The notes under the pieces are model-generated. The model searched no databases and was not told the origin of the DNA. It saw only the letters and a list, made by a program, of their open reading frames with translations. DNA of 64,000 nt, taken from positions 192,001 through 256,000 of the IMG/VR virus record IMGVR_UViG_3300015606_001334; one strand, 5' to 3'. The position numbers were made by a program, and so were the translations under genes. The stretch is from a virus (lineage: Duplodnaviria > Caudoviricetes). This document shows, one piece after another, positions 27,494-54,698 of this stretch (its first letter is position 1; each line of letters opens with the position of its first letter).

Positions 27494-28228
27494 TTACTTT
27501 CTTACCCAATCGGTCATATCAGCGTCAATGAAATCACTTTGCATATCAAGTACATCACGATCACCCTGCAAATGGTCATTGATTATTTGTTGGGCTTTAT
27601 TGATTTCTGTTGCAGCTGAAGTTCCACCATAGTTATGGACGAATTTTACCTGCTCTAAACCTTCAACTTGTAGGAGCTCTAAAACTCCTCTTTCGATTGG
27701 ATCGCATTGTAGGACCGAACCCATTATCCAATTCTTCGAAATCCCAGTGAAGGTTGTAATCTTATTTCCGTGGATGATTAATTCACCGCACTGAGATGGG
27801 ATACCGTCCCAATCTTTAAGTTGGTTGTCCGAGACATCACATCTATCTTGAACCGAGCCGGCCATACCTTCAAGAGATTCAATGCCGAGCCCTGGTACGC
27901 TGTAACGGCCATAGACGGTTATTGGGCCATTCTTCAATGAGCGAAGCTTTTCTCTACCATTAGTGATAATAATGAAGTTGCCATTTACTTCTCCAAATTG
28001 GTAAGGTAAGTAGCACATGTTGTCATCATCCAGTGGAAGATCATTGGCACGGATTCGAACGCTCTCTTGACAATTGATTACGAAATTCTTACCTTCTTTT
28101 TCAACTCGAATATTCCGTACTTTGACACTTGCACACCAATCTTCGATTTCCTGTTTGGTTAAACGATCATGCTCATCGCCCCAATCAGATTCGTTTAGGG
28201 TTTGTTTGAAAATTGCGGATAGTTTCAT
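27494..28228 (-). CDS. LRR-type paralog family member 1 (capsid-targeting N-peptide, conserved C-tag)
   Basis: MKLSAIFKQTLNE; repeats GP.TV.G.Y / SLEG; C-terminus DVLDMQSDFIDADM. Confidence 0.8.
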   Translation of the reverse strand: MKLSAIFKQTLNESDWGDEHDRLTKQEIEDWCASVKVRNIRVEKEGKNFVINCQESVRIRANDLPLDDDNMCYLPYQFGEVNGNFIIITNGREKLRSLKNGPITVYGRYSVPGLGIESLEGMAGSVQDRCDVSDNQLKDWDGIPSQCGELIIHGNKITTFTGISKNWIMGSVLQCDPIERGVLELLQVEGLEQVKFVHNYGGTSAATEINKAQQIINDHLQGDRDVLDMQSDFIDADMTDWVRK

Positions 28229-29151
28229 ATTTTTGCCAATTCTGTAAATCCTGCGTCTACGAGTTCTTCTTGGAACTCAAAAACGTCGTGTGAGCCAATA
28301 TACTTTTCGACGATTGGAATGATTCCATCAGTCGGCCAAGACTTGTCTTCATTGTTTACGTCATAGAATGATTCTTCAACTTCATTTAATCCGTTGATCA
28401 TTGCCAGACCTAAAATTGAAGAAAAGATTTTGGTCTGATAAAGAGTAATTCGTTTTGCCGATTTGACGTATTTATGAATGTTATGGAGTGATGTTAATTT
28501 AGGTAGTTGATCTAGCGACAGCGTGTCTACTTCCTTCGGTAGATCTTTCAAATTGTCGTTAGTGAAATGCTCAGTTGAAGAAAGATTGAAGTTACCTAGC
28601 TTTTCTGGAATGCCAGAAAAGTCTTTAAAGTTTTTGCAGAATCTAATTGACAGATTCATGTCATTGCCGATTTTAGTTGGGAACCCTCTAATAGATTCTA
28701 TTCCATCACAAGCGAAAACTGAAAAAGATGAGTTAACCTCTTCTGGGCCACCAACAAGGTCTTTAACGGTACTATCTAAACCTTGTTCTTCAATAGTGAA
28801 CACTTCACACGAGCGAGGAACTCCAGCAAGAGATTTAAGCTTACAGCCTTGAGAAATAACAAATGCTGTTTTTACATCCTTAAACGGAAACGGCATTTGA
28901 CCATCAACCAGCATCCAATCTTGAATTTGGATTCTATCAACTCTATGGTGCCAATCGATACTAACAGTAACGTCATCATTAAACTTTACTGAAGCGTCCT
29001 CAAATAGGTCGCTAAACATGGGCATCATGACCTCTCCAGAATCTGGATCAACACATATCTTTGCGTAGATCTTTTTCAATTCCTCGACTGTCTTTGGCCA
29101 ATGAGGAAGTTTCTGGGATTCAATAAGGAAATGTTTAAATGTCTTTTTCAT
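28225..29151 (-). CDS. LRR-type paralog family member 2
   Basis: MKKTFKHFLIE; LKSLAGVP, LVGGPEEV, IRGFP repeats; C-terminus DVFEFQEELVDAGFTELAKI. Confidence 0.8.
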   Translation of the reverse strand: MKKTFKHFLIESQKLPHWPKTVEELKKIYAKICVDPDSGEVMMPMFSDLFEDASVKFNDDVTVSIDWHHRVDRIQIQDWMLVDGQMPFPFKDVKTAFVISQGCKLKSLAGVPRSCEVFTIEEQGLDSTVKDLVGGPEEVNSSFSVFACDGIESIRGFPTKIGNDMNLSIRFCKNFKDFSGIPEKLGNFNLSSTEHFTNDNLKDLPKEVDTLSLDQLPKLTSLHNIHKYVKSAKRITLYQTKIFSSILGLAMINGLNEVEESFYDVNNEDKSWPTDGIIPIVEKYIGSHDVFEFQEELVDAGFTELAKI

Positions 29152-29777
29152 AGTCTTGCGTACTCTTCAAAACCTAATTCTAATAGTGCGTCTTGGCAAT
29201 CGAAAATATCTCCGCCTTCATAGTCTGGACTAGCAGGCAAGTACTTAGCAATAAGCTCTTCAAAGTCAAATCCACGTTGACCATTTGCGCCTCCGGCAGC
29301 TTTTCTCCAATCTGCTCCCATAGACAGTGCAGTTACACCTTTAATCTTTAGGATACCAAGAATGTGAGATTTGATCTTATTTCCATCACAGTAAATTTTA
29401 CCATTGATTTCTGTGAAGTGTTTATCTATACCTTTGAATGAATTGAAATGACAGTTTTCACCGAACATTATTGTCGATCTAATAATCTTTGGGAACTTAC
29501 TGAAGTCATTAACAATTTCATCGCCTGTTACGAAAAACAACCCGGACCCAATGTTGAGATTGAAATTCTTTGAGTCATAAAATTTGATAAACTTAGTTAA
29601 CTCATCAAAGTCTGAAGAACGTAAACGTAACTCTTTATCTAAAGAAACACTTTGGAAATCTTCTTGGTGCTGGTCAAGAAATTTTTTAACTTTATCAGAT
29701 ACAGTATTACCAACAGGGAAAGTCTCGTAATAACCAACTTGATTAGTCTGGTTTTCGAACAAGTTAAATAATTTCAT
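29148..29777 (-). CDS. LRR-type paralog family member 3
   Basis: MKLFNLFE; SFKGIDKH, ILGILKIKG; C-terminus DIFDCQDALLELGFEEYARL. Confidence 0.8.
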   Translation of the reverse strand: MKLFNLFENQTNQVGYYETFPVGNTVSDKVKKFLDQHQEDFQSVSLDKELRLRSSDFDELTKFIKFYDSKNFNLNIGSGLFFVTGDEIVNDFSKFPKIIRSTIMFGENCHFNSFKGIDKHFTEINGKIYCDGNKIKSHILGILKIKGVTALSMGADWRKAAGGANGQRGFDFEELIAKYLPASPDYEGGDIFDCQDALLELGFEEYARL

Positions 29778-30574
29778 AGTCTTGCCTGCTTTTCAAAACC
29801 CGCGTCGATGAGCTTGTCTTGAACTTCAAATACGTCGTCTTCGCCTTGGATACTCGCCTCGATGATCTCGCACCATCCCATACTTCTGTCTGCCAAATCC
29901 CATATGATAGTCTTTAGGTTTTTGACAAGCATAAGATTCAATCCACATTCCTCAATCACTTGGCGTTTTCTACCATTGAAGAGAATCAATTCAGCTTTAG
30001 ACTTTTCTCCAAATTTGACATATTTGTGGAAGTCATGGAATGACTTAATAGCGGTATCTGTGATGTTTAGATTACCAAAAATAGTTCCCAATCCTTTTAC
30101 TGACTCTAGCTTTGGGCAATCTGATAGAATAACCGTTCCAGTGTAGAGCATTTGCCCTTGTTCAGAAACTCTTTCAAGTTCTTTACATTGTGCAAATGAA
30201 ACAGGCCCTTCACACTGAAAACCAATAAGCCCAAGGTAATCAAGGTTCTTTAGTGACCAACAATGTTCAAAATTAGCAGTACCTTTTACCCATTTAGGAG
30301 CCCCTTCGACAGACTTCAGCTCCTTATTCATTGAGCAATGGAAATGCCCGGTAACGATGTTGAATCTGAAAGGAAGATATTCAAGAGATAATGCTTTGAG
30401 ATTCACGTTTCCTTTTACGTTTACCGCAGGCCCAAAAGCGGTATCAACAATTTGACAATTGGCAATGCCGCCTTCAATACATTCTTCGAAATCCCAAAGG
30501 GCTTTCTCAGTATCTTCTTTAGTCTTAGGAAGAGGAGCTTTCTCTTCCTTTAGGAAACGTTTAAATGAAATCAT
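29774..30574 (-). CDS. LRR-type paralog family member 4
   Basis: MISFKRFLKE; LP.RF..V.G.F.C..N.EL.S.EGAP; C-terminus DVFEVQDKLIDAGFEKQARL. Confidence 0.8.
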   Translation of the reverse strand: MISFKRFLKEEKAPLPKTKEDTEKALWDFEECIEGGIANCQIVDTAFGPAVNVKGNVNLKALSLEYLPFRFNIVTGHFHCSMNKELKSVEGAPKWVKGTANFEHCWSLKNLDYLGLIGFQCEGPVSFAQCKELERVSEQGQMLYTGTVILSDCPKLESVKGLGTIFGNLNITDTAIKSFHDFHKYVKFGEKSKAELILFNGRKRQVIEECGLNLMLVKNLKTIIWDLADRSMGWCEIIEASIQGEDDVFEVQDKLIDAGFEKQARL

Positions 30575-30575
30575 T

Positions 30576-31052: not shown

Positions 31053-31550
31053 TTATGCAATATGAACAGCTTGTCTATATTTCTGAATATAGCCCATGGT
31101 GAAATCAATTGCATCATGAACAATCTTAAGATCTTCTTTGTTTTTACCAAAGAACCACTTCTTGAAATCGTCAAATCTACGCTCAACAATAGTCTTAAAG
31201 CTCATGAAGTGGTTATCATTGTAAGTGTTGAGAATCTTTTCAATTCCCTTTTCGACTTCACCCTCATTTGCGTGATCCATATCATTGTTATCGACTAATC
31301 GCTTGAAACCGATTAGGTCAGTAGGATCAATCTTCTTAGCTTGAACGAAACGGAAAAACTGTTCAAAAATAGCAACGATCTTAAGATAGTGATCAACTTT
31401 ATGGTTGTCGAGCTGCTCATCTTCTTTTAAAAGCTCAACAAGCTTTTTCTTTAAAACAGACAAAATATCTAGAATGTTTTCTTCCTGAATCTGCTCAATG
31501 AAACCTTCAAAAAGATCATTTGCGAGATATTGTTTTAATGTGAATTTCAT
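31053..31550 (-). CDS. hypothetical protein with capsid-targeting-like N-terminus
   Basis: MKFTLKQYLANDLFE; late promoter CATAAATA at 31577-31584. Confidence 0.65.
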   Translation of the reverse strand: MKFTLKQYLANDLFEGFIEQIQEENILDILSVLKKKLVELLKEDEQLDNHKVDHYLKIVAIFEQFFRFVQAKKIDPTDLIGFKRLVDNNDMDHANEGEVEKGIEKILNTYNDNHFMSFKTIVERRFDDFKKWFFGKNKEDLKIVHDAIDFTMGYIQKYRQAVHIA

Positions 31551-31579
31551 TTTGATTCCAATTCAATAACTTAGGCTAT

Positions 31580-32251
31580 TTATGCTAACAGAAGATCAAG
31601 CACTTTATGAAGTGCTTCTTTTCTTATAGCTAAATACTCATCACATTTAATCATTACTTCATGTTGTTTAAAATCTCTAAATTTGACAAGATCTGTTCTT
31701 AGTGAGTCATCATCGCAATGATAGTCAAGTGAATCCATAAATTCTTGGAATTCTTTGAATTCAGTGTTTGACACTGGAACTTTATCTAAATCTTCGTCGT
31801 CTCTATGACGATTGTTAAACTCTTGAGCAGAATAAGTAAAGTCTTCAACCTTAGGAGACCAACAAAATGTCACTCGGTCTAAAGGAAACACTGCGTAAAC
31901 ATCACCATATGATTCAGCTAGACTAGTCGAACGAGAAACGAAAATAGATTCTGATCTAAATTTTGTTCCAAATTTGTGTTTAAAATAGTCATCAGCAAGC
32001 TCATGGACCTTTTTCGCAGTAGTCATTGGACGACGCGAGGTGCGAGGATATTTCAAACAGATATCTGGAGAGAATCTCTCCTTCATTCCGCGATACACAA
32101 TCCAATTCAGATTATTTGTCGCGTATCCTCCAATGATCTTCTCCCATTCTTTGCCACGCTCTTTGATCATTTCAGCGGCTTCTTCTGGAGAAATTTCATC
32201 AGCTTGAAGGTAAGTTGATTCTTTAAGAAAGTCTTTAAATGTTAGCTTCAT
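31580..32251 (-). CDS. putative ADP-ribosyltransferase-fold protein, probably virion-packaged
   Basis: MKLTFKDFLKE; VYRGM, IFVSRS..A.SYG..Y and HEVMI fit the R-S-E triad layout. Confidence 0.65.
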   Translation of the reverse strand: MKLTFKDFLKESTYLQADEISPEEAAEMIKERGKEWEKIIGGYATNNLNWIVYRGMKERFSPDICLKYPRTSRRPMTTAKKVHELADDYFKHKFGTKFRSESIFVSRSTSLAESYGDVYAVFPLDRVTFCWSPKVEDFTYSAQEFNNRHRDDEDLDKVPVSNTEFKEFQEFMDSLDYHCDDDSLRTDLVKFRDFKQHEVMIKCDEYLAIRKEALHKVLDLLLA

Positions 32252-33132
32252 TTAATGTTCAATGTTCTTTTGATAAAACCAATTGATTCAGCCGAAACTA
32301 GAATACATTTGTCGCCAATCCAGACTTCTTTATCGTTTGGTGCTTGGCTATAGAAATTTTGTGGAAGTAATGCTTTGAACTTTAGGTTTTGTGGAGAAAG
32401 GGTTTTGTAGAGATAGTCAAGGAAAGTTTTGCCGTCAGAAATGCCAAACTTTTTAGCGAATTCTTTAGCACCCATATCCTCGTCTTTAATGAACGGGCTC
32501 CATCCATTTTGTAGACTAGTGACTACACGCTCCATTCCGATTTCATCAATATTCTTGACGAAAATCTCAGGAGTGATAATGCCTACTTTGACTTTTTTAT
32601 TTCCTGCTCCACGTGCATTGGTAAAAATTCGATTGATCATCGTAGAGATACCATCAACGTTTGCTTCTCTATCAAACACCTTAAAATTCAAATCAAAGAT
32701 GTCATGTTGCGGAACTACACCTATGATTGTATTGTCAAATGGGAACACAACGTAAAGAGCTTCACCGTAGCCGGTAGCGTATTCTCTACTAGTGGAAGCG
32801 ATCATTGCTTTGTTTCGCTTAGGAAGATCTGTTCCCTGAAAATCAGGGTGGGTGTCGATAATCATTCGATAGTAGTCATGAGTATTTTCGGTAGTACGAG
32901 TTCCTTTATTGTACTGGACCTGAATGACTTCTGGGCCATCTGACATCCCACGGAAAATACCAAAATTAGTTTTGAAGAACTTGTCAGTAGCGTGCTTGCA
33001 GTTCTTGTTCAAAAGCTTCATTAGCTCTTTGACTTTTTCCTCAGAATCGATTTTGTCAAAGATGATCTTTTTTCTATTGACGCTATCTTTTACTGTAGCT
33101 TCAGCAAGGAACTCTTTAAACGTTAGCTTCAT
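32248..33132 (-). CDS. putative ADP-ribosyltransferase-fold protein, probably virion-packaged
   Basis: MKLTFKEFLAE; IFRGM, ASTSREYA.GYG..Y, KEVWI. Confidence 0.65.
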   Translation of the reverse strand: MKLTFKEFLAEATVKDSVNRKKIIFDKIDSEEKVKELMKLLNKNCKHATDKFFKTNFGIFRGMSDGPEVIQVQYNKGTRTTENTHDYYRMIIDTHPDFQGTDLPKRNKAMIASTSREYATGYGEALYVVFPFDNTIIGVVPQHDIFDLNFKVFDREANVDGISTMINRIFTNARGAGNKKVKVGIITPEIFVKNIDEIGMERVVTSLQNGWSPFIKDEDMGAKEFAKKFGISDGKTFLDYLYKTLSPQNLKFKALLPQNFYSQAPNDKEVWIGDKCILVSAESIGFIKRTLNIK

Positions 33133-33616
33133 CTTCCTGTTCCTGTGCTAGGTTGACGATAATGACTTTTGGTTTAAATCCAAGAGCGAAAGCCGCATTG
33201 CATCGAGTATTTCCAGAAAGGATCCACATTCCTTTCGCGCCCTTCACGATGATTGGCATTGGGAGTTTTTCTTCGTTCTTTATCCCGTTGGCAATACGAT
33301 CGACGTCTTTATGAGAGGAATAAGTCTTGACCAAGCTCTTAAGAGAACTAATGCTAGAAACAGACGACATACCTTGAACATGACTGACAAAAGATCTGTC
33401 AATCTCTCGGATTTCTCCCGCTTCTACCTTCTCCCTAAAATCATCGAAGTCAGTAAACAGTGGGGACTGGAGCAGTATAATACGGGCACGATTCTCCCAT
33501 TTGTCCTGCTTTCGCTGGAACTGGGCAAAGTCGTCCTTCAAGGTCTTCACAGAAGGGAAGACCCAAGGCTTGTATGTCTTGAGCTCTGAAGACTCGTATA
33601 GTTGGATTAGATGCAT
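33116..33616 (-). CDS. ParB/Srx-fold protein with capsid-targeting-like N-terminus
   Basis: MHLIQLYE; V.RI..GIK....PMPII....W.ILSGNTR..A; late promoter at 33647-33654. Confidence 0.65.
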   Translation of the reverse strand: MHLIQLYESSELKTYKPWVFPSVKTLKDDFAQFQRKQDKWENRARIILLQSPLFTDFDDFREKVEAGEIREIDRSFVSHVQGMSSVSSISSLKSLVKTYSSHKDVDRIANGIKNEEKLPMPIIVKGAKGMWILSGNTRCNAAFALGFKPKVIIVNLAQEQEDEANV

Positions 33617-33652
33617 TTAAGGACTCTAAGTCAAAATTGTCTGAAGTATTTA

Positions 33653-33681
33653 TTTACAACTGACCAACTATGTGATAAAAT
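33653..33681 (+). promoter_or_regulatory. early promoter TTTACA-N17-TAAAAT
   Basis: 17-bp spacer, TG extension; overlaps a divergent late promoter. Confidence 0.7.
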
Positions 33682-33704
33682 CAGGCAAAAGCGGAGGTGT
33701 AAAC

Positions 33705-33953
33705 ATGGCAATCATTGACGTAATCAACGAGCTCGACAAAGACAACGTAAACGAAGAACAGATCGGAAGGATCCTTCGTGAGCTGAAGGAAAATGGTATT
33801 GGAGTCGAGTACTACTTTGTTGACCGGCAAAAGCTTTGGCAGACTGTGATCAGTTGTGGAAACGATCTTCAGTACTTCGGGTCAGGCAAGACTTTGGCTC
33901 TTGCCTTGTCGAACGGACTAAGCGACTGGTTTATGGAGTACGACTGCGAGTAG
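33705..33953 (+). CDS. hypothetical early protein
   Basis: 82 aa, GGAGG SD, own promoter. Confidence 0.65.
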   Translation: MAIIDVINELDKDNVNEEQIGRILRELKENGIGVEYYFVDRQKLWQTVISCGNDLQYFGSGKTLALALSNGLSDWFMEYDCE

Positions 33954-34727: not shown

Positions 34728-35119
34728 GATAAGTCGGCCACAGTCTTTTTGTAAAGGTCGGTAATTTGTTTGATTCTCTTACCAAACATTTGCTTGCCTT
34801 GATCGTTACAGAAATTATCAATACGTGGAGTAACGTATTGTAGGAATTGATAGGTCCACTTGAGCAAATGAGGAATGACTTTAGGATTCTTGACAGTCAC
34901 CAAGCCAACTTCACTCATGAGGTCGCCGATCTTTTTACCATTCAGGATTGGACTACGGAATTGCTTCATCATAGCTTCGAGCTCTTTGTTAGCAGCTTCG
35001 TCTTTTCCGTAGGTATTTAGCTTAGCAGTATTAAGAGTGGTGAACCACATAATCTCATTGAGCATTTCAATATAGCCCTTGAGGTCTTTGGTCGCTTCAA
35101 ATAAAGTTTCTAATCTCAT
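34724..35119 (-). CDS. hypothetical protein with capsid-targeting-like N-terminus
   Basis: MRLETLFE; ATGA-coupled on both sides. Confidence 0.65.
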   Translation of the reverse strand: MRLETLFEATKDLKGYIEMLNEIMWFTTLNTAKLNTYGKDEAANKELEAMMKQFRSPILNGKKIGDLMSEVGLVTVKNPKVIPHLLKWTYQFLQYVTPRIDNFCNDQGKQMFGKRIKQITDLYKKTVADLS

Positions 35120-35145
35120 AGGAATCTTTCTAGTCCTGCGTCAAT
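35116..35145. repeat. 30-bp perfect direct repeat, copy 1
   Basis: TCATAGGAATCTTTCTAGTCCTGCGTCAAT, identical to 36928-36957. Confidence 0.95.
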
Positions 35146-35679
35146 AAATCTGTCCTGAACTTCTAGAATATCATCTCCATCTTCAAAACCGAACTTCACT
35201 AGCAAGAACGCCTTTTTAAAGTCAGGATCGATAGAAGATGTTCCACCACTAACAAGTATACCACCTCGAATATTTTTTATTCTCAGTAGATCTAAAAGAC
35301 CAGAAGTAGTTTCTTTGCTGATGTAGAAAATATTGCATTCAGTTACTCGTTTGTAAATCCCCTTTAAGCTCATCTTGAAGTCAAACTGAAGGTTGTAATC
35401 GCAACGATAAGGGAGAAAATCGAATTTGGTAAATGAATTAGTGTTGTCGAATTCTATTTCTCCAACAGAACCAAACTTCCATTCTGGAATGTCTTCGTCA
35501 GAAATCCCACCGAAGACTGCTCTAGAATCTTTGTTTAGATTGAGCTCGCCATTCTCAAATGAGAAATGTGATGCATTTTTCAAATCAAAATTCTTAAGGT
35601 GTAGTTTTAACCAAGAAACCACGTCTTCTGGGATATGCGCCCAAGGATTTGACGCTTCAAAAAGATTTTTTATTTTCAT
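35116..35679 (-). CDS. LRR-type paralog family member 5 (short)
   Basis: MKIKNLFE; SLKGIYK, GLLDLLRIK; C-terminus DILEVQDRFIDAGLERFL. Confidence 0.8.
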   Translation of the reverse strand: MKIKNLFEASNPWAHIPEDVVSWLKLHLKNFDLKNASHFSFENGELNLNKDSRAVFGGISDEDIPEWKFGSVGEIEFDNTNSFTKFDFLPYRCDYNLQFDFKMSLKGIYKRVTECNIFYISKETTSGLLDLLRIKNIRGGILVSGGTSSIDPDFKKAFLLVKFGFEDGDDILEVQDRFIDAGLERFL

Positions 35680-36368
35680 GCAAATTGCTCAAATCCATTG
35701 TCTATCAAATGATCCTGAAGATCAAGAATATCTCGTTCGTCTCTATGAGTTGAATCTAAGTAGCTATTTACAGCATCAGTCACCTTAATGTTTCCAGCAA
35801 ATTCAACTCTGTCTAGATTCTTTATTCCTGCGAGGTAAGAAACATTTCGTAAACAGTCTTCTGATCCACTGAAATAAAGTTCACCACAAGATTCAATCAC
35901 TTTATGGATGTTCTTTAGTGATTTTATTCCAGTTCCATCTTGCTGATATCGTGTCATATGGTTAGGGAACCAAGAAGGGAACTCAGTAAGAGTTTCACAA
36001 GTTCCATAAACGCCGAAATCGTAAATTTCTTCACCACGTTTAAACTTGAACGGTGGAGCGCCAGCAATGTCATAGATGTAAATGGTAATGCCAAGCCCGT
36101 ATTCGCAGTCAAGAAACTCACCGTTAAATCTTACCTGCTTTAGATCGTCTTTATTGTTGTGGAGAAATTTATCTCTTTCGGACTGATCCATCTTTCTTTC
36201 AAGATAATACTTAGCGATCTTCTGCATATTCTTGCTCTTTGCGTTCTTATAGAACTCAGCAAACTTAGGACGATCATTCCCATTTAGGTTGCCGTAGAGT
36301 AGATTCGCAAGAATGTAATCTTCAAAGATTTCTTCCTGTGTAGATTCAAGTAAAGTATTCAGTTTCAT
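35676..36368 (-). CDS. LRR-type paralog family member 6
   Basis: MKLNTLLE; IKSLKNIHK; C-terminus DILDLQDHLIDNGFEQFA. Confidence 0.8.
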   Translation of the reverse strand: MKLNTLLESTQEEIFEDYILANLLYGNLNGNDRPKFAEFYKNAKSKNMQKIAKYYLERKMDQSERDKFLHNNKDDLKQVRFNGEFLDCEYGLGITIYIYDIAGAPPFKFKRGEEIYDFGVYGTCETLTEFPSWFPNHMTRYQQDGTGIKSLKNIHKVIESCGELYFSGSEDCLRNVSYLAGIKNLDRVEFAGNIKVTDAVNSYLDSTHRDERDILDLQDHLIDNGFEQFA

Positions 36369-36931
36369 TAGCAGAATTCCTTAAAGCCAGCGTCATGAAG
36401 GGCTTCTTGACAGTCAAAAATATCTTTGCCTTCTCTTACATGACTCTGGACTATAGCAAATGCCCCGCCAAGTTTAGGATTTGCGGACCCATTTAGAAAA
36501 ACTTCCTTTAGACCCTTCACCTTCATTATTTCAAGAAGTCCAGAACGAATATCTCTAGGGAGAGTTAGCTTCTCGCATGAGACGATTCCCTTTGAAAGTC
36601 CTTTTAGGTCTTTTGGAATGCTTGCACCTTTCTTAAACTCGATATGCTTGCACTCGCTTGGTAGAATATCAAAGTTGTTAAGAGTAACTGAACCGTCTAG
36701 AATGAAAAGTTGGACTTTACCAAAACGAACGCTTTCAGGAAGCTTGTCATAAGGTTCCTCATAGTCATGAATGTGAATAAAGGTTCTAGATGTTACGATA
36801 CGTCCTCTGAAGGTTCCAAACTCTTCATTGGTTTTTATGTCGGCGGCGTGAACGAAGGTTAGCAACCACTTCTTCTGTTCTTCAGATAATGGGGCGGATC
36901 GGCTCTCTACTTTAATTTCAGTCAATTTCAT
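36368..36931 (-). CDS. LRR-type paralog family member 7 (short)
   Basis: MKLTEIKVE; GLLEIMKVKGL; C-terminus DIFDCQEALHDAGFKEFC. Confidence 0.8.
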   Translation of the reverse strand: MKLTEIKVESRSAPLSEEQKKWLLTFVHAADIKTNEEFGTFRGRIVTSRTFIHIHDYEEPYDKLPESVRFGKVQLFILDGSVTLNNFDILPSECKHIEFKKGASIPKDLKGLSKGIVSCEKLTLPRDIRSGLLEIMKVKGLKEVFLNGSANPKLGGAFAIVQSHVREGKDIFDCQEALHDAGFKEFC

Positions 36932-36957
36932 AGGAATCTTTCTAGTCCTGCGTCAAT
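36928..36957. repeat. 30-bp perfect direct repeat, copy 2
   Basis: Identical to 35116-35145. Confidence 0.95.
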
Positions 36958-37530
36958 GAACATATCTTGAATGTCTAGAACATCAAGATTTTCTTTCTTG
37001 CCTTTTTGTAGTAGTTTGACTGCGTTAAACAATTCGCGATTCTCAGCTACAGTTATGTTGTTTCTTATCGCCCCAAGCTTTTGGATTCGCGCTACATCCA
37101 ATAGTCCGTTCTTGACGTTCTTTCCGATGTAAAGCTCTTTGACTTCTTTAACCGCCTTGTGTATACCTTTTAAAGTCTGGACTTTCGAATTTAGGAACAT
37201 AAGGATAGAACATTTCTCCGGCAGCCAAGAGAAATCGGTAAATTCGCAAGAGTTGTCAAATCCTACCCAGCCAGCCTCCTTGATCTTAAAAGGAGGGAGA
37301 AACAGATCAGTCACTTTTCTGAAATAAAGAGAGGTAGTTTGATACGCGCAGAAGGAACCGTCTTTTTCGTCTACCCAATAATTCTTGTGGTCGTACGGAG
37401 TATAGTCAGCAGAACCCTTATGTGTAAATCGAGTCAGGTATCTGACCATTTCTTTAGTTGGAGGAGTCTCTCGACCTTGAGCCTTAGGCCATCTTCTAGC
37501 TTCAGCTTCGAATAATTCCATAGCCTTCAT
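36928..37530 (-). CDS. LRR-type paralog family member 8 (short)
   Basis: MKAMELFE; TLKGIHK, GLLDV.RI; C-terminus DVLDIQDMFIDAGLERFL. Confidence 0.8.
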   Translation of the reverse strand: MKAMELFEAEARRWPKAQGRETPPTKEMVRYLTRFTHKGSADYTPYDHKNYWVDEKDGSFCAYQTTSLYFRKVTDLFLPPFKIKEAGWVGFDNSCEFTDFSWLPEKCSILMFLNSKVQTLKGIHKAVKEVKELYIGKNVKNGLLDVARIQKLGAIRNNITVAENRELFNAVKLLQKGKKENLDVLDIQDMFIDAGLERFL

Positions 37531-38033
37531 TTAGACTTCCTTTCACCGGTCTTCTTATTTGGTTTGGTTCCATTTGAGGCACGGGTTCTTTTTGTCTTGT
37601 TCGCTGGCTTTCTACCACCAGCAAAGATTGACTGTTCGGTCAAGACACGGAATTTCATGCCGTTTGCTGCACAGAACGCCTCAGCTGCTTGCCACTTCGC
37701 ATGGTTAACCATAATTGCGAGCTTATCGTAATTGGAGCTACGTTCAGTAAGGACTGATTCCTTCAATGGCTTTACCTCAACCAATTCCTTGATAAGGTTA
37801 CCTTCTTTGTCCTTGTAGACGACGATAAAATCTGGGAAATAGTAATGGACTTTTCCGTCTGTAGGCTTTACATAAGGGATCTTGATTTCTTCTGATCCCC
37901 ATTTGTAGACACTTGGATGACTATCAAAAAATTTACAAACAGAAAGTTCCCAAGAACTTCTACAGAAGATGTTTCCTGGGTTGCCAAGGTATTTCCCTGG
38001 ATTTTTAGGTATGAATCTAGCTCTAAGTGCCAT
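37527..38033 (-). CDS. head completion nuclease (T4 gp4-like, TnsA-type endonuclease fold)
   Basis: PKNP.KY.G, RSSWE, W.SEE..IPY, YFPDF, EVKP, N.AKW.AA. Confidence 0.92.
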   Translation of the reverse strand: MALRARFIPKNPGKYLGNPGNIFCRSSWELSVCKFFDSHPSVYKWGSEEIKIPYVKPTDGKVHYYFPDFIVVYKDKEGNLIKELVEVKPLKESVLTERSSNYDKLAIMVNHAKWQAAEAFCAANGMKFRVLTEQSIFAGGRKPANKTKRTRASNGTKPNKKTGERKSK

Positions 38034-47718: not shown

Positions 47719-48744
47719 TTATAGTTTACCCGCTGCTTTCAAATCCTTAGAAATACCGGTGGTAATCACTTTAGGATCTGAAAGGTCGATGCTCCTAAGA
47801 ACATCTAAATACTGCTGATACTCAGGGTGTGCAGGATTTCCGATGTATTTATGACTAAACTCAGCATCAGTGCCAGTTCTAAAGTCAACAATCATATCGA
47901 AGAAGATTCCATCTGCACCAACACGATGTCCAAGTTCGATAAACTTTGGAATCTCTTTGTAATTTGCTTGTTGTACAACAAAGAGGATCGTGAACATTCC
48001 AACTTGACCTCTCTTCTTTTTATGCTTTACGAAAAAGAGATTTTTGATTAGCTCTTTCCAACTACCGCCTTGACGAGTATAGGAATAAGTTTCTTCTGTT
48101 GCTGCGTCTATACTTATGCTGACATTTCTAACTCGATCTTGCAAGCCAATTTTGTTCCAAGTTCTTCTGTTTAGAAGCTGGGCATTGCTATGTAAATCAA
48201 AATTAATGTGGGCATACTCTGGAGAATTAACAACTTCCTTCATGACGTTAATGAAGTGCTTGCTTGCGAAGGGCTCTCCGCTCCCAGATATGTGTAGGGT
48301 TTTTAGAGTTGGCATCCAAGGTCTAACACCTGACTCATAGTAGACTTTGAATTTTTCTTGAGAAGCATCATCATTGTAGATGTTCTTAGTATTTCTGCAA
48401 GAAGGACAAACCAAATTGCATGAAATATCGTAAGACAGCTTTATTGATTCAGGCTTCTTTTCGAGGTATTCATCAACATTTACTGAGTCTCTATCCAATA
48501 AGCCAACATCATTTGCTAATCTTGGACAAAATTCACGAGAGCAATATTTGTAGTCACCATCAATGACAGACCTACGAATTTCTTTTGCCCTTGGTGAATT
48601 CCAAATTTCTTCAGGTGAGTGCCTGAAAATATTTCCGAGAGGAATACTTAGCCACTTTTGACAGCAAAAGTAAACGTCTCCGGACCTGTTCAGCTCCATG
48701 TTGGTGAATGGACGGGTACAGAATTTCTTAGTAAGATCTATCAT
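47719..48744 (-). CDS. radical SAM protein with N-terminal SPASM/twitch domain
   Basis: CTRPF..GDV.FCC..LGNI...EEIWNS, CNLVCPSC, SGEPF, SIDA. Confidence 0.9.
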   Translation of the reverse strand: MIDLTKKFCTRPFTNMELNRSGDVYFCCQKWLSIPLGNIFRHSPEEIWNSPRAKEIRRSVIDGDYKYCSREFCPRLANDVGLLDRDSVNVDEYLEKKPESIKLSYDISCNLVCPSCRNTKNIYNDDASQEKFKVYYESGVRPWMPTLKTLHISGSGEPFASKHFINVMKEVVNSPEYAHINFDLHSNAQLLNRRTWNKIGLQDRVRNVSISIDAATEETYSYTRQGGSWKELIKNLFFVKHKKKRGQVGMFTILFVVQQANYKEIPKFIELGHRVGADGIFFDMIVDFRTGTDAEFSHKYIGNPAHPEYQQYLDVLRSIDLSDPKVITTGISKDLKAAGKL

Positions 48745-48794: not shown

Positions 48795-49388
48795 TTAGGT
48801 AGCGTGGCCGCCGATAGCAGTGCCGTAACCTTGACCTGCAAGCTCTTGGTAAGCGTGGTCGAAGCGAATAGTTAGGCTGATCTGAGCTGCTTCAGATGCT
48901 GCGTAATCCATTTCACCCCAATCACAAGCTTGAATGAAACAACCTTCCATCTTCCAGGTTTCAACAACTGCTTCATTGCCGTCTAGCAATTCTAGCTTCA
49001 TTGCGAACTTGTAACCAGATGCGGTTGGTTCTGCATTCAACCACTGACCATTTGCAGAGTCTGCACCGATCAAACGTTGTTGGGTTTCTAGTTGTTGTTG
49101 AACAACGGTAGCTGCTAGACCAGTGATGTCATCTTCAACGGTTAGGCTTAGAGATTCCCAAGAATGCTTGCCTGCGACGTAAGCGGTAGAGTTGTAACGA
49201 TCTAGCTTAACTTCTTCGAAGGATAGGTTTGGACGGGAAACAGTGACTGCCTGCGCGGTTAGATCTTTACCGTTACCATTTGCAGCCTTAGCGATACCGA
49301 TAAAGCGGACTTGCCAACGGTTCTTTAGTTTTGGTGCTAGGATACCAGCGCCGGAGCCTGGGATACCCATTTGTGATAATGTTGCCAT
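48795..49388 (-). CDS. tail tube protein (gp19-like)
   Basis: PKLKNRW.V.F, RP...F, AGK..W, W..EGCF, ISLTIRFD.A; late promoter at 49440-49447. Confidence 0.9.
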   Translation of the reverse strand: MATLSQMGIPGSGAGILAPKLKNRWQVRFIGIAKAANGNGKDLTAQAVTVSRPNLSFEEVKLDRYNSTAYVAGKHSWESLSLTVEDDITGLAATVVQQQLETQQRLIGADSANGQWLNAEPTASGYKFAMKLELLDGNEAVVETWKMEGCFIQACDWGEMDYAASEAAQISLTIRFDHAYQELAGQGYGTAIGGHAT

Positions 49389-49541: not shown

Positions 49542-50342
49542 ATGAAACTCTCTTCCCTGCTTGAAGCAAAACAACCAAAACGTTGGCTTACTGAACCGTC
49601 AGAAATTGCATCCTACATAGGGGAAGCAAGATTAGGGGTAGTCAGCGACTATCAAGTAAACAAAGATGGGACTGTTGATTTCTTTGGCGATGTCTTGTAT
49701 GATGCTGCGATATTCGAGGATCTATACAAGAATGAAAAGTTTCCACATTTCGCAAATACTCTCCCTCTAAAGTTTGGAACAGTGGATGGACAGTTTAATA
49801 TCTCTCGTCTAAGATTGAAAACATTAGAAGGTTGTCCAACTGACATAACTGGAATGTTCAATGCTTCATATAACATTTTTTCAGACCTTAAAGGCGGGCC
49901 AAAAAGAGTTGGTGGGGATTACTATGCAAGCTATAATCCAGAACTAAAGTCATTGGAAGGCTTGGCTGAAATTGTCGTAAAAACCCTCAACTTTACGGCA
50001 ACTAGCATTTCAGAAGACGATCTAAAATATCTTCCAGAGAAAATTGATTCGCTACGAATTGGTCAATGTCCAAATATCAAATCGTTGGCTGACATCGACA
50101 AATATGTCAAAGAGGCAAAACGAACAATAAGCCTATCTGATAATTCTTTGGAGCGAAATATCCTAGGACTTCTTAAGATCAAAGGACTAACTGCTCTACA
50201 ATATGGATTCCCGTCTGGTAAACCATCCGATAAGGCCCTCGAAATCATCGATAAATATCTTCCAGTTAAGGATGCTAACGCATTGCTAGACTGTCAAGAC
50301 GAACTTATCGACGCAGGACTATCGGAATATGCCAGAATATAA
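49542..50342 (+). CDS. LRR-type paralog family member 9
   Basis: MKLSSLLE; LKTLEGCP..I.G.F..S.N..SDLKGGP..VGG.Y..S.N..LKSLEG; C-terminus ALLDCQDELIDAGLSEYARI; late promoter at 49509-49516. Confidence 0.85.
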   Translation: MKLSSLLEAKQPKRWLTEPSEIASYIGEARLGVVSDYQVNKDGTVDFFGDVLYDAAIFEDLYKNEKFPHFANTLPLKFGTVDGQFNISRLRLKTLEGCPTDITGMFNASYNIFSDLKGGPKRVGGDYYASYNPELKSLEGLAEIVVKTLNFTATSISEDDLKYLPEKIDSLRIGQCPNIKSLADIDKYVKEAKRTISLSDNSLERNILGLLKIKGLTALQYGFPSGKPSDKALEIIDKYLPVKDANALLDCQDELIDAGLSEYARI

Positions 50343-51042: not shown

Positions 51043-52887
51043 TTAACCTGGCATTTGAGCGCCAGTGTTAAGAACGCGGATTGGGATGTAAATGAATTCA
51101 GCCGCTTTTACTGGCTTAATTGCAACATCCAACCATAGCTCGTTTCTGTCGATTCGAGTTGCGGTGTTGTTTGATTCGTCGCAAAGTGTAACGAAGTCAT
51201 ATAGACCGCGCTTGATCAAGATGTCATTCAAGAAACCGTCGGCTGCTGCCTTGAGGTTGTCACGAGTGATTTGATCGTTTGGTTCGAAGACGAATGGGAA
51301 TGCACCCTTACGTAGACCACGCTTCATGTACATAACTAGACGAACAACGTTTACGCGGTCTAGAGCGGAAGCTGCAGATGCTGCAGTCTTCTGACCCCAA
51401 ATGATGATACCACGACCTGGGAAGTAAACGATTGGGTTGATGTTCTTGTAGAACTCGTATAGGTTGTCACGTTGACCTTGGTTTAGGTTACATTCAACGA
51501 ATGTAGTTGGAGTACCGAGCGCGCCGGTCACATAACCAACCTTTGAAACGCCAGTAACTAGACCACGACGAACACCAGCTGGAGCGAACCATAGTTCTGC
51601 AACAGAGTCGCTGTACGCATAGGTACGTAGTGCGATACCAGATGGAGCGCAAACAACGTCATTGCCGTCCAAGTTGGATGCTAGACCCCATGGGTAGTAG
51701 TAAGCAACGGAGGTAGAGTTGAAACGCTCAGAGGTATTTGCCCAGTTTGCGACTTCGTCTGGGTTCTTGAAGACTGGAGTATCACCGATTACGAATGCTT
51801 CGTCGTTAACTGCGACAGATAGAGCTAGCATTTCGTCAACAACTTCTGGGTAACCTGGACATACGATTAGGTTGTATTCGTACATTTCAGAACGAACTTC
51901 AGTGTTGCTGTTGATTTCAGCTTGTAGTGCGGTGCGGATCGCTAGACGTTTTGCTGAATCGCTTGGACCTAGTGGGTTGTTCAATAGAACTTCGATTAGA
52001 TTTAGCTCGAAATAATCGCCAGCTACGAATGGAGCGGAGCCATTCACAATAGTGAAGCTTACGTAGCCATTGTCGTATGGTGAACCGACGGTACCGTTTG
52101 CGTGAGGACCGGTCAAGGAACCAACTACGGTAAATTGGGTTGCAGAGATGAATTCGACTGCAATGGTTTCTGCAACTGCTAGATCGCCTACTTGTAGATT
52201 AACGAATGATCCGTTGCCGGTGCCAGTGTATGACGATGGACCATACTGTAGCGCAAAGGTGAAGTAATCACCAGCTACGAATGGGGTAGAACCTGCATTG
52301 ATAGTGAAACGAATCTTGTCGGAAATAAAGACTTGACCGACAGTTGCGATGCCGATTAGACCAGATTTAGAACCAGTTACGTTGAAAGTATTTGCGCTAG
52401 TTGCAACTACGGTGAACGACTCAAGTCTAACCATTGGGCTAACTGCTTGTAGACCAGTGATAGTACCATTACCTACGCCCATTAGATTTGGGGTGGTAGC
52501 AAGAGGGGTTCCGATACCGATAAATGATAGTGGTGCATCGGTTAGATCGACGTTTGCGCGAACAACAAAAGCTTTGTTGCCTACGCCAAGGTATTGATTT
52601 AGTGCAAATAGACCGTATTCGTTACGAGCGTCGCCATGATATGCTTCACCGCTAGCGTTTTGCCAGAAGTAAGGAATACCATATAGCTGTACAGATTGAC
52701 CTAGAGAGGTAACAGTTCTGACGACAGAGTGCTCATTTGTGCCTGCTGCTGGAGTTAGACCGTTAGGCTGCATCTTGCCGGCGCGAGTTGCGACGAAGAA
52801 TAGCGGAACGGTTGGAGCGGACACAGGAATGTAGAATGAGTCATCAATAACTGGGACTGTTACGCCAGGTGAAACTAATGTTGGCAT
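51043..52887 (-). CDS. tail sheath protein (gp18-like)
   Basis: LVSPGV, WFAPAG..RG, RD.LY...INPI, WGQKT, DRVNV.RL, FEPND..TR, CDESNNT..RIDRNEL, P.KA.EFI. Confidence 0.97.
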   Translation of the reverse strand: MPTLVSPGVTVPVIDDSFYIPVSAPTVPLFFVATRAGKMQPNGLTPAAGTNEHSVVRTVTSLGQSVQLYGIPYFWQNASGEAYHGDARNEYGLFALNQYLGVGNKAFVVRANVDLTDAPLSFIGIGTPLATTPNLMGVGNGTITGLQAVSPMVRLESFTVVATSANTFNVTGSKSGLIGIATVGQVFISDKIRFTINAGSTPFVAGDYFTFALQYGPSSYTGTGNGSFVNLQVGDLAVAETIAVEFISATQFTVVGSLTGPHANGTVGSPYDNGYVSFTIVNGSAPFVAGDYFELNLIEVLLNNPLGPSDSAKRLAIRTALQAEINSNTEVRSEMYEYNLIVCPGYPEVVDEMLALSVAVNDEAFVIGDTPVFKNPDEVANWANTSERFNSTSVAYYYPWGLASNLDGNDVVCAPSGIALRTYAYSDSVAELWFAPAGVRRGLVTGVSKVGYVTGALGTPTTFVECNLNQGQRDNLYEFYKNINPIVYFPGRGIIIWGQKTAASAASALDRVNVVRLVMYMKRGLRKGAFPFVFEPNDQITRDNLKAAADGFLNDILIKRGLYDFVTLCDESNNTATRIDRNELWLDVAIKPVKAAEFIYIPIRVLNTGAQMPG

Positions 52888-53029: not shown

Positions 53030-53058
53030 GGGATGAACCGTTTTCAACCGAAATTGTC

Positions 53059-53865
53059 ATGAGATTCAAAGAATACCTTCTAGAAGCACCACAAGACGAA
53101 GAAACAATTAAAGAGTTTTTAACTGAAACTCTTGGACTACACCCGTCCGATTTTCTCATCAAAGAAGATAATTCAGTTACTTTGTTCTCAGATCTAAATA
53201 TAGATGCAGTCCATGGTCAAACCTTAAAAAGGCTGCCAATTAAGTTCAACGAAATTGATGGTGATATTTGGATTAATAACTGTCAGTTGGAAACCTTAAT
53301 AGGTCTTCCAGCCATCGCAGAAAACATTTACCTAATCAACACTCGAATTAAGAGTTTGAAATATCTACCAAAGACAATTCACGGTGACTTGGTAATAAAC
53401 AACAACCGAAATCTTGCCTCTCTTGAAGGTTGTCCAGATTCCGTTCCTGGCGACTTTAGCTGTAGTGACAATCACGAATTGTTATCACTAGAAGGCGGGC
53501 CAAAAGAGGTTGGCAAAAGCTACAAAATCGATACTTGCAACAAGCTCAAGAGCATTGAGGGTATTGCATCAACTATCGGTAAACACCTCTCTATCTGTAA
53601 CAACCGTGGTCTTGACAACCTAGAAGGCATCAGTAGAAAAGTCAAGAGTTGCGGTGGTAAGCTTGACGTGTCTGGTAACTATTTCTCACGCGCCATCATG
53701 GGAGTAGTTACATTGAAGGGCATAACTGGTTTAGAATATAAATTTGGTGGCAAGGCATCGAAGGCCTTCGAAATTATCTTCAAGTGTCGTGAGGAAGGCA
53801 AGGATGCTCTTGAGTGTCAAGACCTACTCATTGATGCTGGACTACAGGAATTTGCAAAGCTATGA
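53059..53865 (+). CDS. LRR-type paralog family member 10
   Basis: MRFKEYLLE; about 5-6 repeats L.SL.G.P..V.G.F....N; C-terminus DALECQDLLIDAGLQEFAKL. Confidence 0.85.
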   Translation: MRFKEYLLEAPQDEETIKEFLTETLGLHPSDFLIKEDNSVTLFSDLNIDAVHGQTLKRLPIKFNEIDGDIWINNCQLETLIGLPAIAENIYLINTRIKSLKYLPKTIHGDLVINNNRNLASLEGCPDSVPGDFSCSDNHELLSLEGGPKEVGKSYKIDTCNKLKSIEGIASTIGKHLSICNNRGLDNLEGISRKVKSCGGKLDVSGNYFSRAIMGVVTLKGITGLEYKFGGKASKAFEIIFKCREEGKDALECQDLLIDAGLQEFAKL

Positions 53866-54698
53866 AAACCACATTCAAAAAACTTCTCATCAACGAATCT
53901 CAAACCAAATTTCTCAGTGAAGAGTCTGCTATCAGAGAATGGCTAGACAAAATGGGAGTTGAAGATTACTCAATCAACGGCGACATGACTGTATCGGTCA
54001 AGGGTCCTTTGTCTCTAGATGACAAAAATCTTGAAGAAATTCCGGTGAAGTTCAGTGAAGTCGGCGGATCCATTGATGTTACTAGCAACAAGTTAAAGCG
54101 AATTGACTGGGCACCAGCTACTGTGAACGGGGATTTTGACGCGTGGGATAACGAGATCGAGACCCTACAAGGTGGTCCAACTGAAGTCAAAGGCTCGTAT
54201 GACGTAGATGGTAACAAGATTACCGATCTTCATGGAAGCCCTAAAACCGTTGGCGTATCGTTCATCGTTTCAAAGAACCCTTTGCATGGACTTGCAGGTT
54301 GCCCTCAATCAGTTGGAAGTTATTTCAAAGCTGAAGCTTGCAACCTAACTGAGATTGACGACCTACCAAGATCTGTGGGTACTAACATCTACCTACAAGG
54401 CAATCATATTTCTTCGTTGAAGAACATCAACAAGTTCCTCAAAGAAGTCAACGCTAAGAATGATGCAAAGGGCGGTAAGGTCGTTTTGTCCGCTAACCCG
54501 ATTACTGCGGGCATATCTGCCCTACTAGCTATCAAGGGCTTCAAAGAAGTAGTCTTTGATGGAGTAAAGGGTCAGAGCAGCTCTTACCAAGAACTCATAA
54601 AGGTTGCCGAGATCATCAACAAGGGATTGAAGGCTAACGAAGATCCATTCGACATCCAAGAGAAGATTTTGGATTCAGATTGGTCATCCTTCGCTTAA
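53862..54698 (+). CDS. LRR-type paralog family member 11
   Basis: MKTTFKKLLINE; regular 22-aa repeats P..V.G.F....N.L..L.G; C-terminus DPFDIQEKILDSDWSSFA. Confidence 0.85.
   Translation: MKTTFKKLLINESQTKFLSEESAIREWLDKMGVEDYSINGDMTVSVKGPLSLDDKNLEEIPVKFSEVGGSIDVTSNKLKRIDWAPATVNGDFDAWDNEIETLQGGPTEVKGSYDVDGNKITDLHGSPKTVGVSFIVSKNPLHGLAGCPQSVGSYFKAEACNLTEIDDLPRSVGTNIYLQGNHISSLKNINKFLKEVNAKNDAKGGKVVLSANPITAGISALLAIKGFKEVVFDGVKGQSSSYQELIKVAEIINKGLKANEDPFDIQEKILDSDWSSFA

Follow-up and report, generated by a model that had tools for sequence, protein, structure and literature searches.

The window analyzed here is a 64,000-nucleotide stretch of viral DNA (positions 192,001 to 256,000 of IMG/VR record IMGVR_UViG_3300015606_001334) that encodes 11 LRR-family paralogs ending in a similar tag, and the question raised by this locus is whether that tag does more than close the fold of the proteins that carry it. 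An initial annotation of the DNA had proposed that it might be a handle for docking to a shared partner, in a design combining a variable binder with a constant adaptor. The tag was followed through the genome, through related proteins, and into predicted structures.

Identification of the tagged paralogs

Each of the 11 C termini said to share the tag is the last 18–20 residues of a real open reading frame (Table 1). The Gln described as invariant is present in 11 of 11 window tails, and in 16 of 16 when paralogs from the rest of the genome are included; the placement of the tag at the stop codon was likewise borne out, with all 11 proteins ending 12 or 14 residues past the Gln. As originally written, the sequence pattern works as a consensus but, taken literally, matches only one of the 11 tails. 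A looser form of it occurs at 13 ORF tails in the window, versus a mean of 0.08 and a maximum of 1 in 50 shuffles, and recurrence of the tag in the window is far above chance. An HMM of the 11 tails, searched against the 2,398 ORFs of a six-frame translation of the whole genome, recovered the window ORFs with E values of 4.7e-20 to 1.1e-14 and added five paralogs outside the window (4.5e-13 to 5.1e-5), the next ORF having an E value of 0.63. The genome carrying the tag, a 359,550-bp jumbo myophage genome, thus holds 16 tag-bearing paralogs in all, and within its 490 ORFs the tail is restricted to these family members. ORFs 20037–20351 and 20360–20689 matched the loose pattern and were rejected as family members because neither matched the tail HMM.

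Table 1. Tag-bearing paralogs in the window, with tag positions and E values from the tail HMM
Paralog	Length (aa)	Position	Strand	Tag	HMM E	Remarks
LRR-family	244	27494..28228	-	27497-27556	4.7e-20	most divergent tail; canonical repeat undetected
LRR-family	308	28225..29151	-	28228-28287	2.2e-17	canonical repeats present
LRR-family	209	29148..29777	-	29151-29210	6.9e-17	
LRR-family	266	29774..30574	-	29777-29836	7.5e-20	
Short-form	187	35116..35679	-	35119-35172	2.2e-17	AF2-modelled
Short-form	230	35676..36368	-	35679-35732	1.1e-14	canonical repeat undetected
Short-form	187	36368..36931	-	36371-36424	4.9e-20	
Short-form	200	36928..37530	-	36931-36984	4.9e-18	
LRR-family	266	49542..50342	+	50280-50339	2.1e-18	
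LRR-family	268	53059..53865	+	53803-53862		AF2-modelled; 17 orthologs aligned
LRR-family	278	53862..54698	+	54642-54695	5.9e-18	

A canonical 22-residue repeat with the consensus PKEVGGDFSCSNNRKLTSLEG was detected in six of the 11 window paralogs and was undetectable in the other five, all of which have the tag, in agreement with the earlier statement that the tag is kept where the repeats have decayed. Conservation extends beyond 18 residues, to a block of approximately 33 that forms two to three helices and lies in a C-terminal module of about 80–110 amino acids. The last 20 residues carry a net charge of −2 to −5 in 16 of 16 paralogs, with protein pI values ranging from 4.8 to 9.0. The last residue is variable among the 16 (I, L, A, C, K, F, Q, or Y), and the tails fall into two length classes.

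Regarding individual genes, the 187-residue paralog at 36368–36931 shows full-length homology to array members of ∼200 amino acids on other phage contigs, and the ATG of the ORF at 49542 is internal to a longer TTG ORF from 49452, with the N-terminal leader (described below) starting at that ATG. The T4 late-promoter word TATAAATA has three matches in the window, a count reached by 22 of 100 shuffles; one match lies 30 bases upstream of 53059, which is no evidence of a promoter.

Distribution of the tail in other phages

Searched against 1.84 billion proteins, a 46-position profile built only from the tail matched 1,192 cluster representatives (50% identity). Of the best 150 of these 1,192, 149 have a match that ends at the C terminus, although conservation statistics for those 150 are inflated because the profile itself selected them. 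The protein ends exactly 14 residues after the Gln in 108 of 120 cases, and the Gln is nearly invariant in the wider family, the exceptions being P0021 and P0235 (Ile) and L010:5162-5725 (Lys). The tail family is not covered by Pfam or PHROGs. Pfam holds no family for the 11 window proteins, and on 125 tail-bearing relatives it gave two matches above cut-off, P0155 (LRR_4) and P0157 (LRR_EndoS). Literature searches turned up no account of LRR proteins in phage heads and none of this tail, and the words "LRR" and "leucine" are absent from the text of Iyer et al. 2021 (PMC7824862). The tag marks a very large family of small LRR proteins in T4-related jumbo myophages that is in no curated library, and it provides a clean signature by which the family genes are easy to find. 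These genes sit within the structural gene block and form tandem arrays in relatives, with up to 34 copies in ∼27 kb of a 360-kb phage contig.

The arrangement of a variable N-terminal part and a constant C-terminal module, one half of the earlier proposal, is thus real and widespread. Carriers lacking an LRR N-terminal region, for which a tail HMM search had been suggested, do exist (the HExxH-bearing P0148 and P0166, and P0128), but in these three the last LRR-like unit accompanies the tag. The module also occurs in mini-proteins of 72–87 amino acids (P0150 and P0156), and, among the ORFs examined, only in the 72-residue P0150 is the tag found without a preceding LRR-like unit. In the fused double-unit proteins P0114, P0115, and P0137 the first tail is internal and is followed by the second unit, so the tail marks the end of a domain and not a free terminus. 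Of 80 LRR relatives that share the repeat type, 57 have other C-terminal ends, from which it follows that the solenoid does not need this particular cap.

Predicted structure of the tagged proteins

For structural analysis, AF2 models of the 268-residue paralog (53059–53865) and of the 187-residue short form (35116–35679) were used. The former (pLDDT 93.6, pTM 0.90) is modelled as a curved LRR solenoid of the bacterial short type, with one parallel sheet and a strand period of 22 residues; tail helices at residues 233–245, 250–259, and 263–266 follow right after the last strand, and the tail blocks have pLDDT values of 93–97. In the short-form model (pLDDT 88.6) the corresponding helices, 152–167, 171–180, and 184–186, have values of 91–97. 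Neither model has a low-confidence or flexible linker ahead of the tag.

VIA alignment of the 53059–53865 model gave the SspH1 LRR as the best match (4nkh_E, Z 15.2, rmsd 3.7, 214 residues), with YopM, IpaH, and internalins next. When the short-form model was scanned without bias against 48,161 chains, the matches listed were mostly LRR proteins, with a best Z of 6.9, and the model aligned to U2A′ (1a9n_A, Z 6.1) and LANP (2jqd, Z 6.3) in alignments that reach model residues 166–183 and so enter the tail. Thus, the "decayed" 187-residue paralog still looks LRR-like in its predicted structure. The LRR assignment rests on these VIA alignments, Foldseek against the PDB having returned nothing at E ≤ 0.001 for either model. 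A PDB sequence search with the tail profile gave chance-level matches only (E 0.035–1; designed TIM barrels, DARPins, and the Rho N-domain), and an ESM Atlas search with the tail part gave no usable match.

The tail as a probable C-terminal cap

We consider it probable that the tag is a family-specific LRR C-cap closing the open end of a short bacterial-type solenoid, because the conserved residues suit helix-capping and core positions and the Gln falls in the middle of a hydrophobic face. The proteins have three parts: a leader, a variable N-cap with a variable number of regular and irregular LRRs, and a constant end. The constant end runs from the last LRR-like unit (...LGLLKIKGL..V) through a helix (..IINKHL..) to the tag, which would supply the last two helices of the constant capping module. 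Numbering relative to the Gln, Asp(−5) and Glu/Asp(−2) would occupy the helix N-capping box position, and the Ile/Val, Leu/Phe, Leu, and Ile positions would form the putatively buried helix face. The invariant Gln, at the center of this face, may hydrogen-bond to the free backbone of the last repeat and so end the LRR ladder. Ala-Gly-[Phe/Leu] would act as a glycine C-cap, after which a short terminal helix would be packed by the aromatic residue, the Ala, and the final Leu.

Several features of the 53059–53865 model are relevant here. Asp249 immediately precedes the helix, Glu252 is its third residue, and Gly261 comes after its end. A helical wheel combining the model helix limits with conservation places hydrophobic positions −4, −3, +3, and +4, together with Cys −1, on one predicted face with the Gln central. 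Lys193 of the last repeat is nearly invariant, along with Asp249, Gln254, and Asp259. The predicted position of the tail helices, directly after the last strand and at pLDDT 91–97, is as for LRR C-caps. Caps shield the LRR core, and the stability of pp32 depends on its caps (work cited in PMC9525666).

Other observations count against a purely structural cap. Mean pairwise identity among the 17 orthologs is 0.68 for the tag, 0.54 for the LRRs, and 0.44 for the N-cap, and conservation of a C-cap above that of the N-cap is not obviously predicted by such a role. Several conserved acidic tail positions should be on an exposed face. Occurrence of the module behind non-LRR regions and in mini-proteins points in the same direction.

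N-terminal leader and possible packaging

All 16 paralogs begin M-[KR]-...-[LI]-x-E, with a leader of ∼8–11 residues. This pattern is present in 29 of the 490 genome ORFs, ∼14 of which are tail-less, compared with 11 of 2,061 in an internal-Met control. The leader resembles the T4 capsid-targeting sequence at the sequence level, and a gene for a gp21-type prohead protease is present in the genome (PF03420, 94.1 bits, genome positions 265704–266192, minus strand). In T4 the first 10 residues suffice for packaging, according to PMC9026906. The leader would be a likelier shared address than the tag because tail-less proteins also carry it.

A family member has been found in the virion of a cultured relative. 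RsoM2USA ORF89, of 28.56 kDa, matches a virion band in mass, and PMC8504454 gives its LC-MS/MS identification in a band that belongs to the 10 main ones of the virion. This is indirect support for the presence of family members in virions; they would be packaged in the head, lose the leader, and be ejected into the host. Taken together, the T4-like leader, the location in the structural block, and the abundant virion protein of the relative suggest packing, and probably injection, of entire repertoires of LRR binders by jumbo phages. If packed or injected, such binders would be natural candidates for a part in anti-defence or host takeover.

Possible alternative roles of the tail

The idea that the tag docks its carriers to a shared partner found no direct support. 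The tag is modelled as an ordered, integral end of the LRR domain, and ordinary structural explanations are available for most of its conserved residues. This idea, in which the cap doubles as a docking surface whose exposed acidic face and fixed C-terminal end bind one common partner, is unlikely, if not negligibly so. Candidates for the partner would be a component of the prohead core or inner capsid, part of the portal or of the ejection path, or a host hub. This proposal would account for the recovery of 1,192 representatives by the tail profile alone and the terminal position of the match in nearly all of the best 150, although the conservation statistics for these 150 are inflated by profile selection. 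It would also fit the constant Gln-to-end distance in most relatives, the acidity of the tail throughout, the greater conservation of the C-cap than of the N-cap, and the fusion of the module behind HExxH-bearing and other non-LRR regions as well as its presence in mini-proteins. The placing of ORF89 among the 10 most abundant virion bands, as given in PMC8504454, is a further point in its favor. However, a neighborhood search yielded no partner, with only ordinary structural genes recurring beside the arrays; the tag is modelled as packed, with no flexible linker before it; the presumed exposed positions +2, +9, +10, and the last residue vary in the 16 paralogs; and an address label is already supplied by the leader. 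That the module is itself a second address label beside the leader, an acidic three-helix handle for one shared partner in the head or for a host hub, seems to us improbable. Were it so, phages would inject a library of variable binders on a common adaptor, with hundreds of LRR and non-LRR cargo proteins. The tag is in any case a defined element to mutate, by which a folding role could be separated from a docking role.

A dimerization or oligomerization element, acting through the C-terminal helices of family members, would be in keeping with the conserved amphipathic helix pair at the protein end and the many co-expressed paralogs, but we regard it as very unlikely given confident monomer models in which the helices pack on their own solenoid, with no pointer to a shared interface. 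Least probable of all is a C-terminal propeptide, cut by the prohead protease at [IVL]-x-Glu before the Gln, or a terminal signal for a PDZ/Clp-type reader: T4 Alt is cut at both ends by gp21 (PMC9026906) and some tails have I-L-E or V-F-E directly ahead of the Gln, but the protease-site and degron readings were both rejected. Seven of the 11 window tails have Asp and not Glu at that position, a change that blocks processing at the T4 cleavage position (same source), and the last residue varies over the 16 paralogs, which also have two tail length classes, against expectation for a terminal-residue reader.

Comparison with known systems

The preferred reading, a C-terminal cap, invites comparison with LRRCT and the SDS22-like LRRcap (U2A′, pp32/ANP32). 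Like these, the tag is a non-repeat element right after the last repeat that would close the solenoid and surpasses the variable repeat positions in conservation. Unlike them, it shows no sequence similarity in a comparison with Pfam cap models and a PDB profile search (best PDB chain E 0.035), and its end has no cysteine knot, being three-helix, strongly acidic, and marked by a Cys-Gln pair. Its conservation also far exceeds that of the N-cap in these phage proteins. The LRR domains of SspH1, IpaH, and YopM are the best structural matches (Z 14.5–15.2) and share the 20–22-residue bacterial-type repeat; as type III effectors they are, in a further likeness, protein binders delivered into another cell. 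The phage family, by contrast, lacks the NEL ligase domain and secretion signal, has only 18–24% identity to them, and has another C-terminal end, so the resemblance is one of fold, not family.

The helix-turn-helix of the P22 scaffolding protein and the cargo-loading peptides of encapsulins are short, constant C-terminal addresses on varied cargo, with flexible linkers and unrelated folds. They are the model behind the docking idea, whereas the phage tag is predicted to be packed on its own domain. With T4 IPI-III and Alt the family has in common a short leader ending in hydrophobic-x-Glu and found on proteins of one phage that are otherwise unrelated, together with a gp21-type prohead protease in the genome and a virion protein in a relative; the T4 internal proteins, however, are no LRR proteins and lack a conserved C-terminal module. 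A large viral expansion of LRR paralogs is also described for the FNIP/FGxxFN family of Cafeteria roenbergensis virus in PMC9525666, where the caps are said to have little homology, whereas in the phage family the C-cap is the most conserved element.

Conservation and distribution of the C-terminal tag

The C-terminal tag of the LRR-family ORFs is real, far from chance, and marks a large unnamed family. All 11 C-termini on which it had been recognised in the window are true ORF ends, and a loose form of the pattern matched 13 ORF tails there, against a mean of 0.08 over 50 shuffles. As written in the initial annotation the pattern fitted only one of the 11 tails literally, so that it holds as a consensus and not as a rule; the invariance claimed for its Gln was borne out, this being the sole invariant column in the alignment of 16 tails. 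These comprise the window ORFs and five additional paralogs elsewhere in the genome, all recovered from 2,398 six-frame genome ORFs using an HMM built on the 45 C-terminal residues (E = 4.7e-20 to 1.1e-14 for the 11 ORFs; 0.63 for the next-ranked ORF). The Gln lies 12, 14 or, in one case, 15 residues from the protein end. Two small adjacent ORFs, 20037-20351(-) and 20360-20689(-), paralogs of each other, have a terminal helix motif with some likeness to the tag (D-[VI]-Q-x-F-[LI]-K-x-x-G-[IL]-E-R-H); neither matched the HMM, and a relationship is improbable.

A profile of 46 positions built from the 16 tails was searched against 1.84 billion cluster representatives, retrieving 1,192 proteins at E <= 0.001, of which 27 reached E <= 1e-10. 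The match ended at most three residues from the C-terminus in 149 of the best 150 of these 1,192. Three relatives (P0114, P0115 and P0137) are long fused double units, with two complete LRR-plus-tag domains per ORF, one tag internal and one terminal. Among the profile matches listed, 120 of 121 full-length proteins could be anchored on the Gln; it is preceded by Cys in 115, and in 108 its distance to the end is exactly 14 residues, both figures being inflated because the profile itself chose the proteins. No model of the tag was found in Pfam for 125 tag-bearing relatives scanned or in PHROGs for 36, and no published description of the family was found in the literature searched. The 11 window proteins matched no Pfam family, and their PHROG matches were weak and confined to the repeat part.

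In IMG/VR contigs, 123 distinct tag-bearing ORFs (median 207 aa; match C-terminal in 118) were found at 35 loci, arranged as tandem arrays. Contig IMGVR_UViG_3300009709_000002 (360,227 bp) holds 34 distinct copies among those listed in ~27 kb (loci L034 and L037), mostly with 4-base overlaps, and locus L018 holds 17; together with L014 these are giant arrays of ~200-aa leader-plus-tag genes on uncultured jumbo-phage contigs. The genes adjoining the arrays are the same as in the window, namely sheath stabiliser (9 contigs), head closure (8) and terminase (7). Among 185,579 species genomes a strict tag word occurred in a single 330-kb MAG contig, and the family therefore looks phage-specific. 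That contig, CAZFPB010000002.1 (330,120 bp; loci L041-L045), carries at least five copies and belongs to a MAG labelled Pseudobdellovibrionaceae; no other "bacterial" genome record searched has the tag, and mis-binning of a jumbo phage is the probable explanation.

The window covers bases 192001-256000 of a single virus contig of 359,550 bp, whose structural block contains the tagged genes; many of these have a 4-base overlap with an adjacent gene and share the strand of the structural genes. The nearest relatives of the tail sheath are those of the jumbo myophages RsoM2USA, XacN1 and PA5oct. Two radical-SAM-domain genes also lie within the block (26083-27453(-) and 47719-48744(-); phrog_14086 and phrog_21308). 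A possible homing endonuclease is encoded by ORF 20729-21466(+), which begins in a GIY-YIG-like manner (...YIGKG...), runs opposite to the neighbouring genes and falls where the GC content of the window is lowest (0.383).

Structural, tag-bearing and leader-bearing genes, in window coordinates unless marked genome
Feature	Position	Strand	Group or evidence
Large terminase	24536-26053		Structural block
Head-closure protein	37527-38033		Structural block
Tail tube proteins	38033-39211, 48795-49388		Structural block
Tail sheath	51043-52887	-	Structural block
Sheath stabiliser	55035-55787		Structural block
Tag paralog outside window	genome 1406-2293	+	Tag HMM
Tag paralog outside window	genome 175861-176634	-	Tag HMM
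Tag paralog outside window	genome 176631-177686	-	Tag HMM
Tag paralog outside window	genome 177722-178489	-	Tag HMM
Tag paralog outside window	genome 290491-291045	+	Tag HMM
Zeta-toxin-like P-loop kinase	33954-34727		Leader, no tag
phrog_11975/phrog_12810 members	31580-32251, 32248-33132, 55796-56434		Leader, no tag
gp21-type prohead protease	genome 265704-266192	-	PF03420, 94.1 bits

Predicted fold of the tagged proteins

The 268-aa protein 53059-53865 was modelled using AlphaFold2 with 31 sequences in the input (pLDDT 93.6, pTM 0.90). Between residues 63 and 180 the model has strands at a spacing of 22 residues, then helices at 233-245, 250-259 and 263-266; its last four 10-residue blocks have pLDDT 93-97, with no floppy linker at the C-terminal end. 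Foldseek alone returned nothing at E <= 0.001 for this model; VIA aligned it with the SspH1 LRR domain (Z 15.2, rmsd 3.7, 214 residues), followed by the LRRs of internalin A, YopM and IpaH. Its four best structural matches in BFVD are unnamed proteins of 253, 288, 236 and 288 aa, three of which equal the RsoM2USA genes in length and may be their products.

As had been noticed from the sequence, the tag is kept where the repeats have decayed: the canonical repeat was undetected in 5 of the 11 window paralogs, and the tag was present. Window paralogs of 187-200 aa are homologous over >80% of their length to ~200-aa array members elsewhere. The model of 35116-35679 (187 aa; pLDDT 88.6) has ordered terminal helices (pLDDT 91-97), and in an unbiased comparison with 48,161 chains its best matches were mostly LRR proteins (top Z 6.9; no chain at Z >= 8), including U2A' and LANP, with alignments extending into the tag. 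Taken together, this homology, the ordered model and these matches make it probable that the "decayed" paralogs are LRRs of a short, irregular kind.

Cap and docking interpretations of the tag

The most likely role of the tag would be that of a family-specific LRR C-cap, a reading that we favour with moderate confidence. At residue level we infer it from the helix limits of the 53059-53865 model and the conservation among relatives. The Gln, residue 254, lies within helix 250-259; numbered from it, the hydrophobic residues at -4, -3, +3 and +4, like the Cys at -1, are predicted to lie on one side of the helical wheel, with Gln central, and the acidic positions -2, +1, +2 and +5 on the opposite side. 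Asp249 immediately precedes this helix, in which Glu252 is the third residue, a placement that we take for that of an N-capping box; Gly261 comes right after the helix end, has a hydrophobic residue behind it and presumably resembles a glycine C-cap. In the last helix an aromatic residue, Ala and Leu would pack onto the domain. Lys193 of the last repeat is nearly invariant jointly with Asp249, Gln254 and Asp259, which suggests a polar network between tag and body.

The conserved end exceeds the tag: alignments of paralogs and database relatives delimit a C-terminal module of ~80-110 residues, running from the last one or two repeats (SL.GI.K.IK) through an LRR-like unit (IKSNVLGLLKIKGLK.V) and a helix (KA.EIINKHLKG) to the tag (DRDILECQEELIDAGFKEYAKL). 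The initial annotation had suggested that the tag could be a shared docking handle, and was right about the architecture, in which a constant C-terminal module follows a variable N-terminal part. Docking in addition to capping is nevertheless rather unlikely in our estimate. In its favour, mean pairwise identity among 17 orthologs is 0.68 in the tag and 0.69 in the preceding helix, against 0.54 in the repeats and 0.44 in the N-cap, and all 16 paralogs have a net charge between -2 and -5 over the last 20 residues, at whole-protein pI values of 4.8 to 9.0. Moreover, a different C-terminal ending was seen in 57 of 80 relatives built from this type of repeat, so closing the solenoid does not require the tag. 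In the LRR expansion of CroV, by contrast with the conserved tag, the caps are said to show little homology (PMC9525666). A second ending class (...DAGLEIPNR...Y.IIE or ...EEIGK.LPDKI.GY.YI) occurs in P0039, P0045, P0052, P0061, P0079 and other leader-bearing LRR relatives, with the D-A-G-L turn as the only feature common to it and the tag.

The module also occurs behind non-LRR N-terminal regions (P0148, P0166 and P0128), which agrees with docking; in P0148 (470 aa) and P0166 (403 aa), however, one or two LRR-like units intervene between an N-terminal HExxH motif, possibly of a metallopeptidase, and the tag. Neither protein matched a Pfam family. In P0128 an acidic low-complexity linker precedes a unit of only ~55 residues, and P0150 (72 aa) and P0156 (87 aa) are hardly more than leader and module. 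Dimerisation via the tag is very improbable, and a processing or degron signal slightly more so.

The N-terminal leader and virion association

All 16 paralogs start with M-[KR]-...-[LI]-x-E. The strict leader M-[KR]-x(2-7)-[LIF]-x-E was found in 29 of 490 genome ORFs, compared with 11 hits at 2,061 internal Met positions; the tag is present in 11 of the 29 ORFs, and ~14 clear leaders head tag-less proteins. Leader-headed ORFs occupy the window regions 31053-35119 and 55796-56434.

Ralstonia phage RsoM2USA encodes three family members in tandem, each having leader and tag (locus tags 88, 89 and 90). According to PMC8504454, ORF89 (28.57 kDa) and the neighbouring ORF86 were among 10 main virion bands identified by LC-MS/MS; the computed masses are 28.56 kDa (ORF89) and 96.43 kDa (ORF86). 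The tag matters mostly through the family that it marks, in which jumbo phages seem to carry a repertoire of LRR virion proteins headed by the leader.

In phage T4, packaging needs no more than the 10 N-terminal residues of IPIII; leader residues 4 and 7 matter in targeting, and residues 8 and 10 in cleavage after Glu (PMC9026906; see also PMC3012670 and PMC5694885). Given this precedent, the leaders on tag-less proteins and the gp21-type protease, the leader would be a better candidate than the tag for a common packaging address, resembling in sequence the capsid-targeting sequence of T4.
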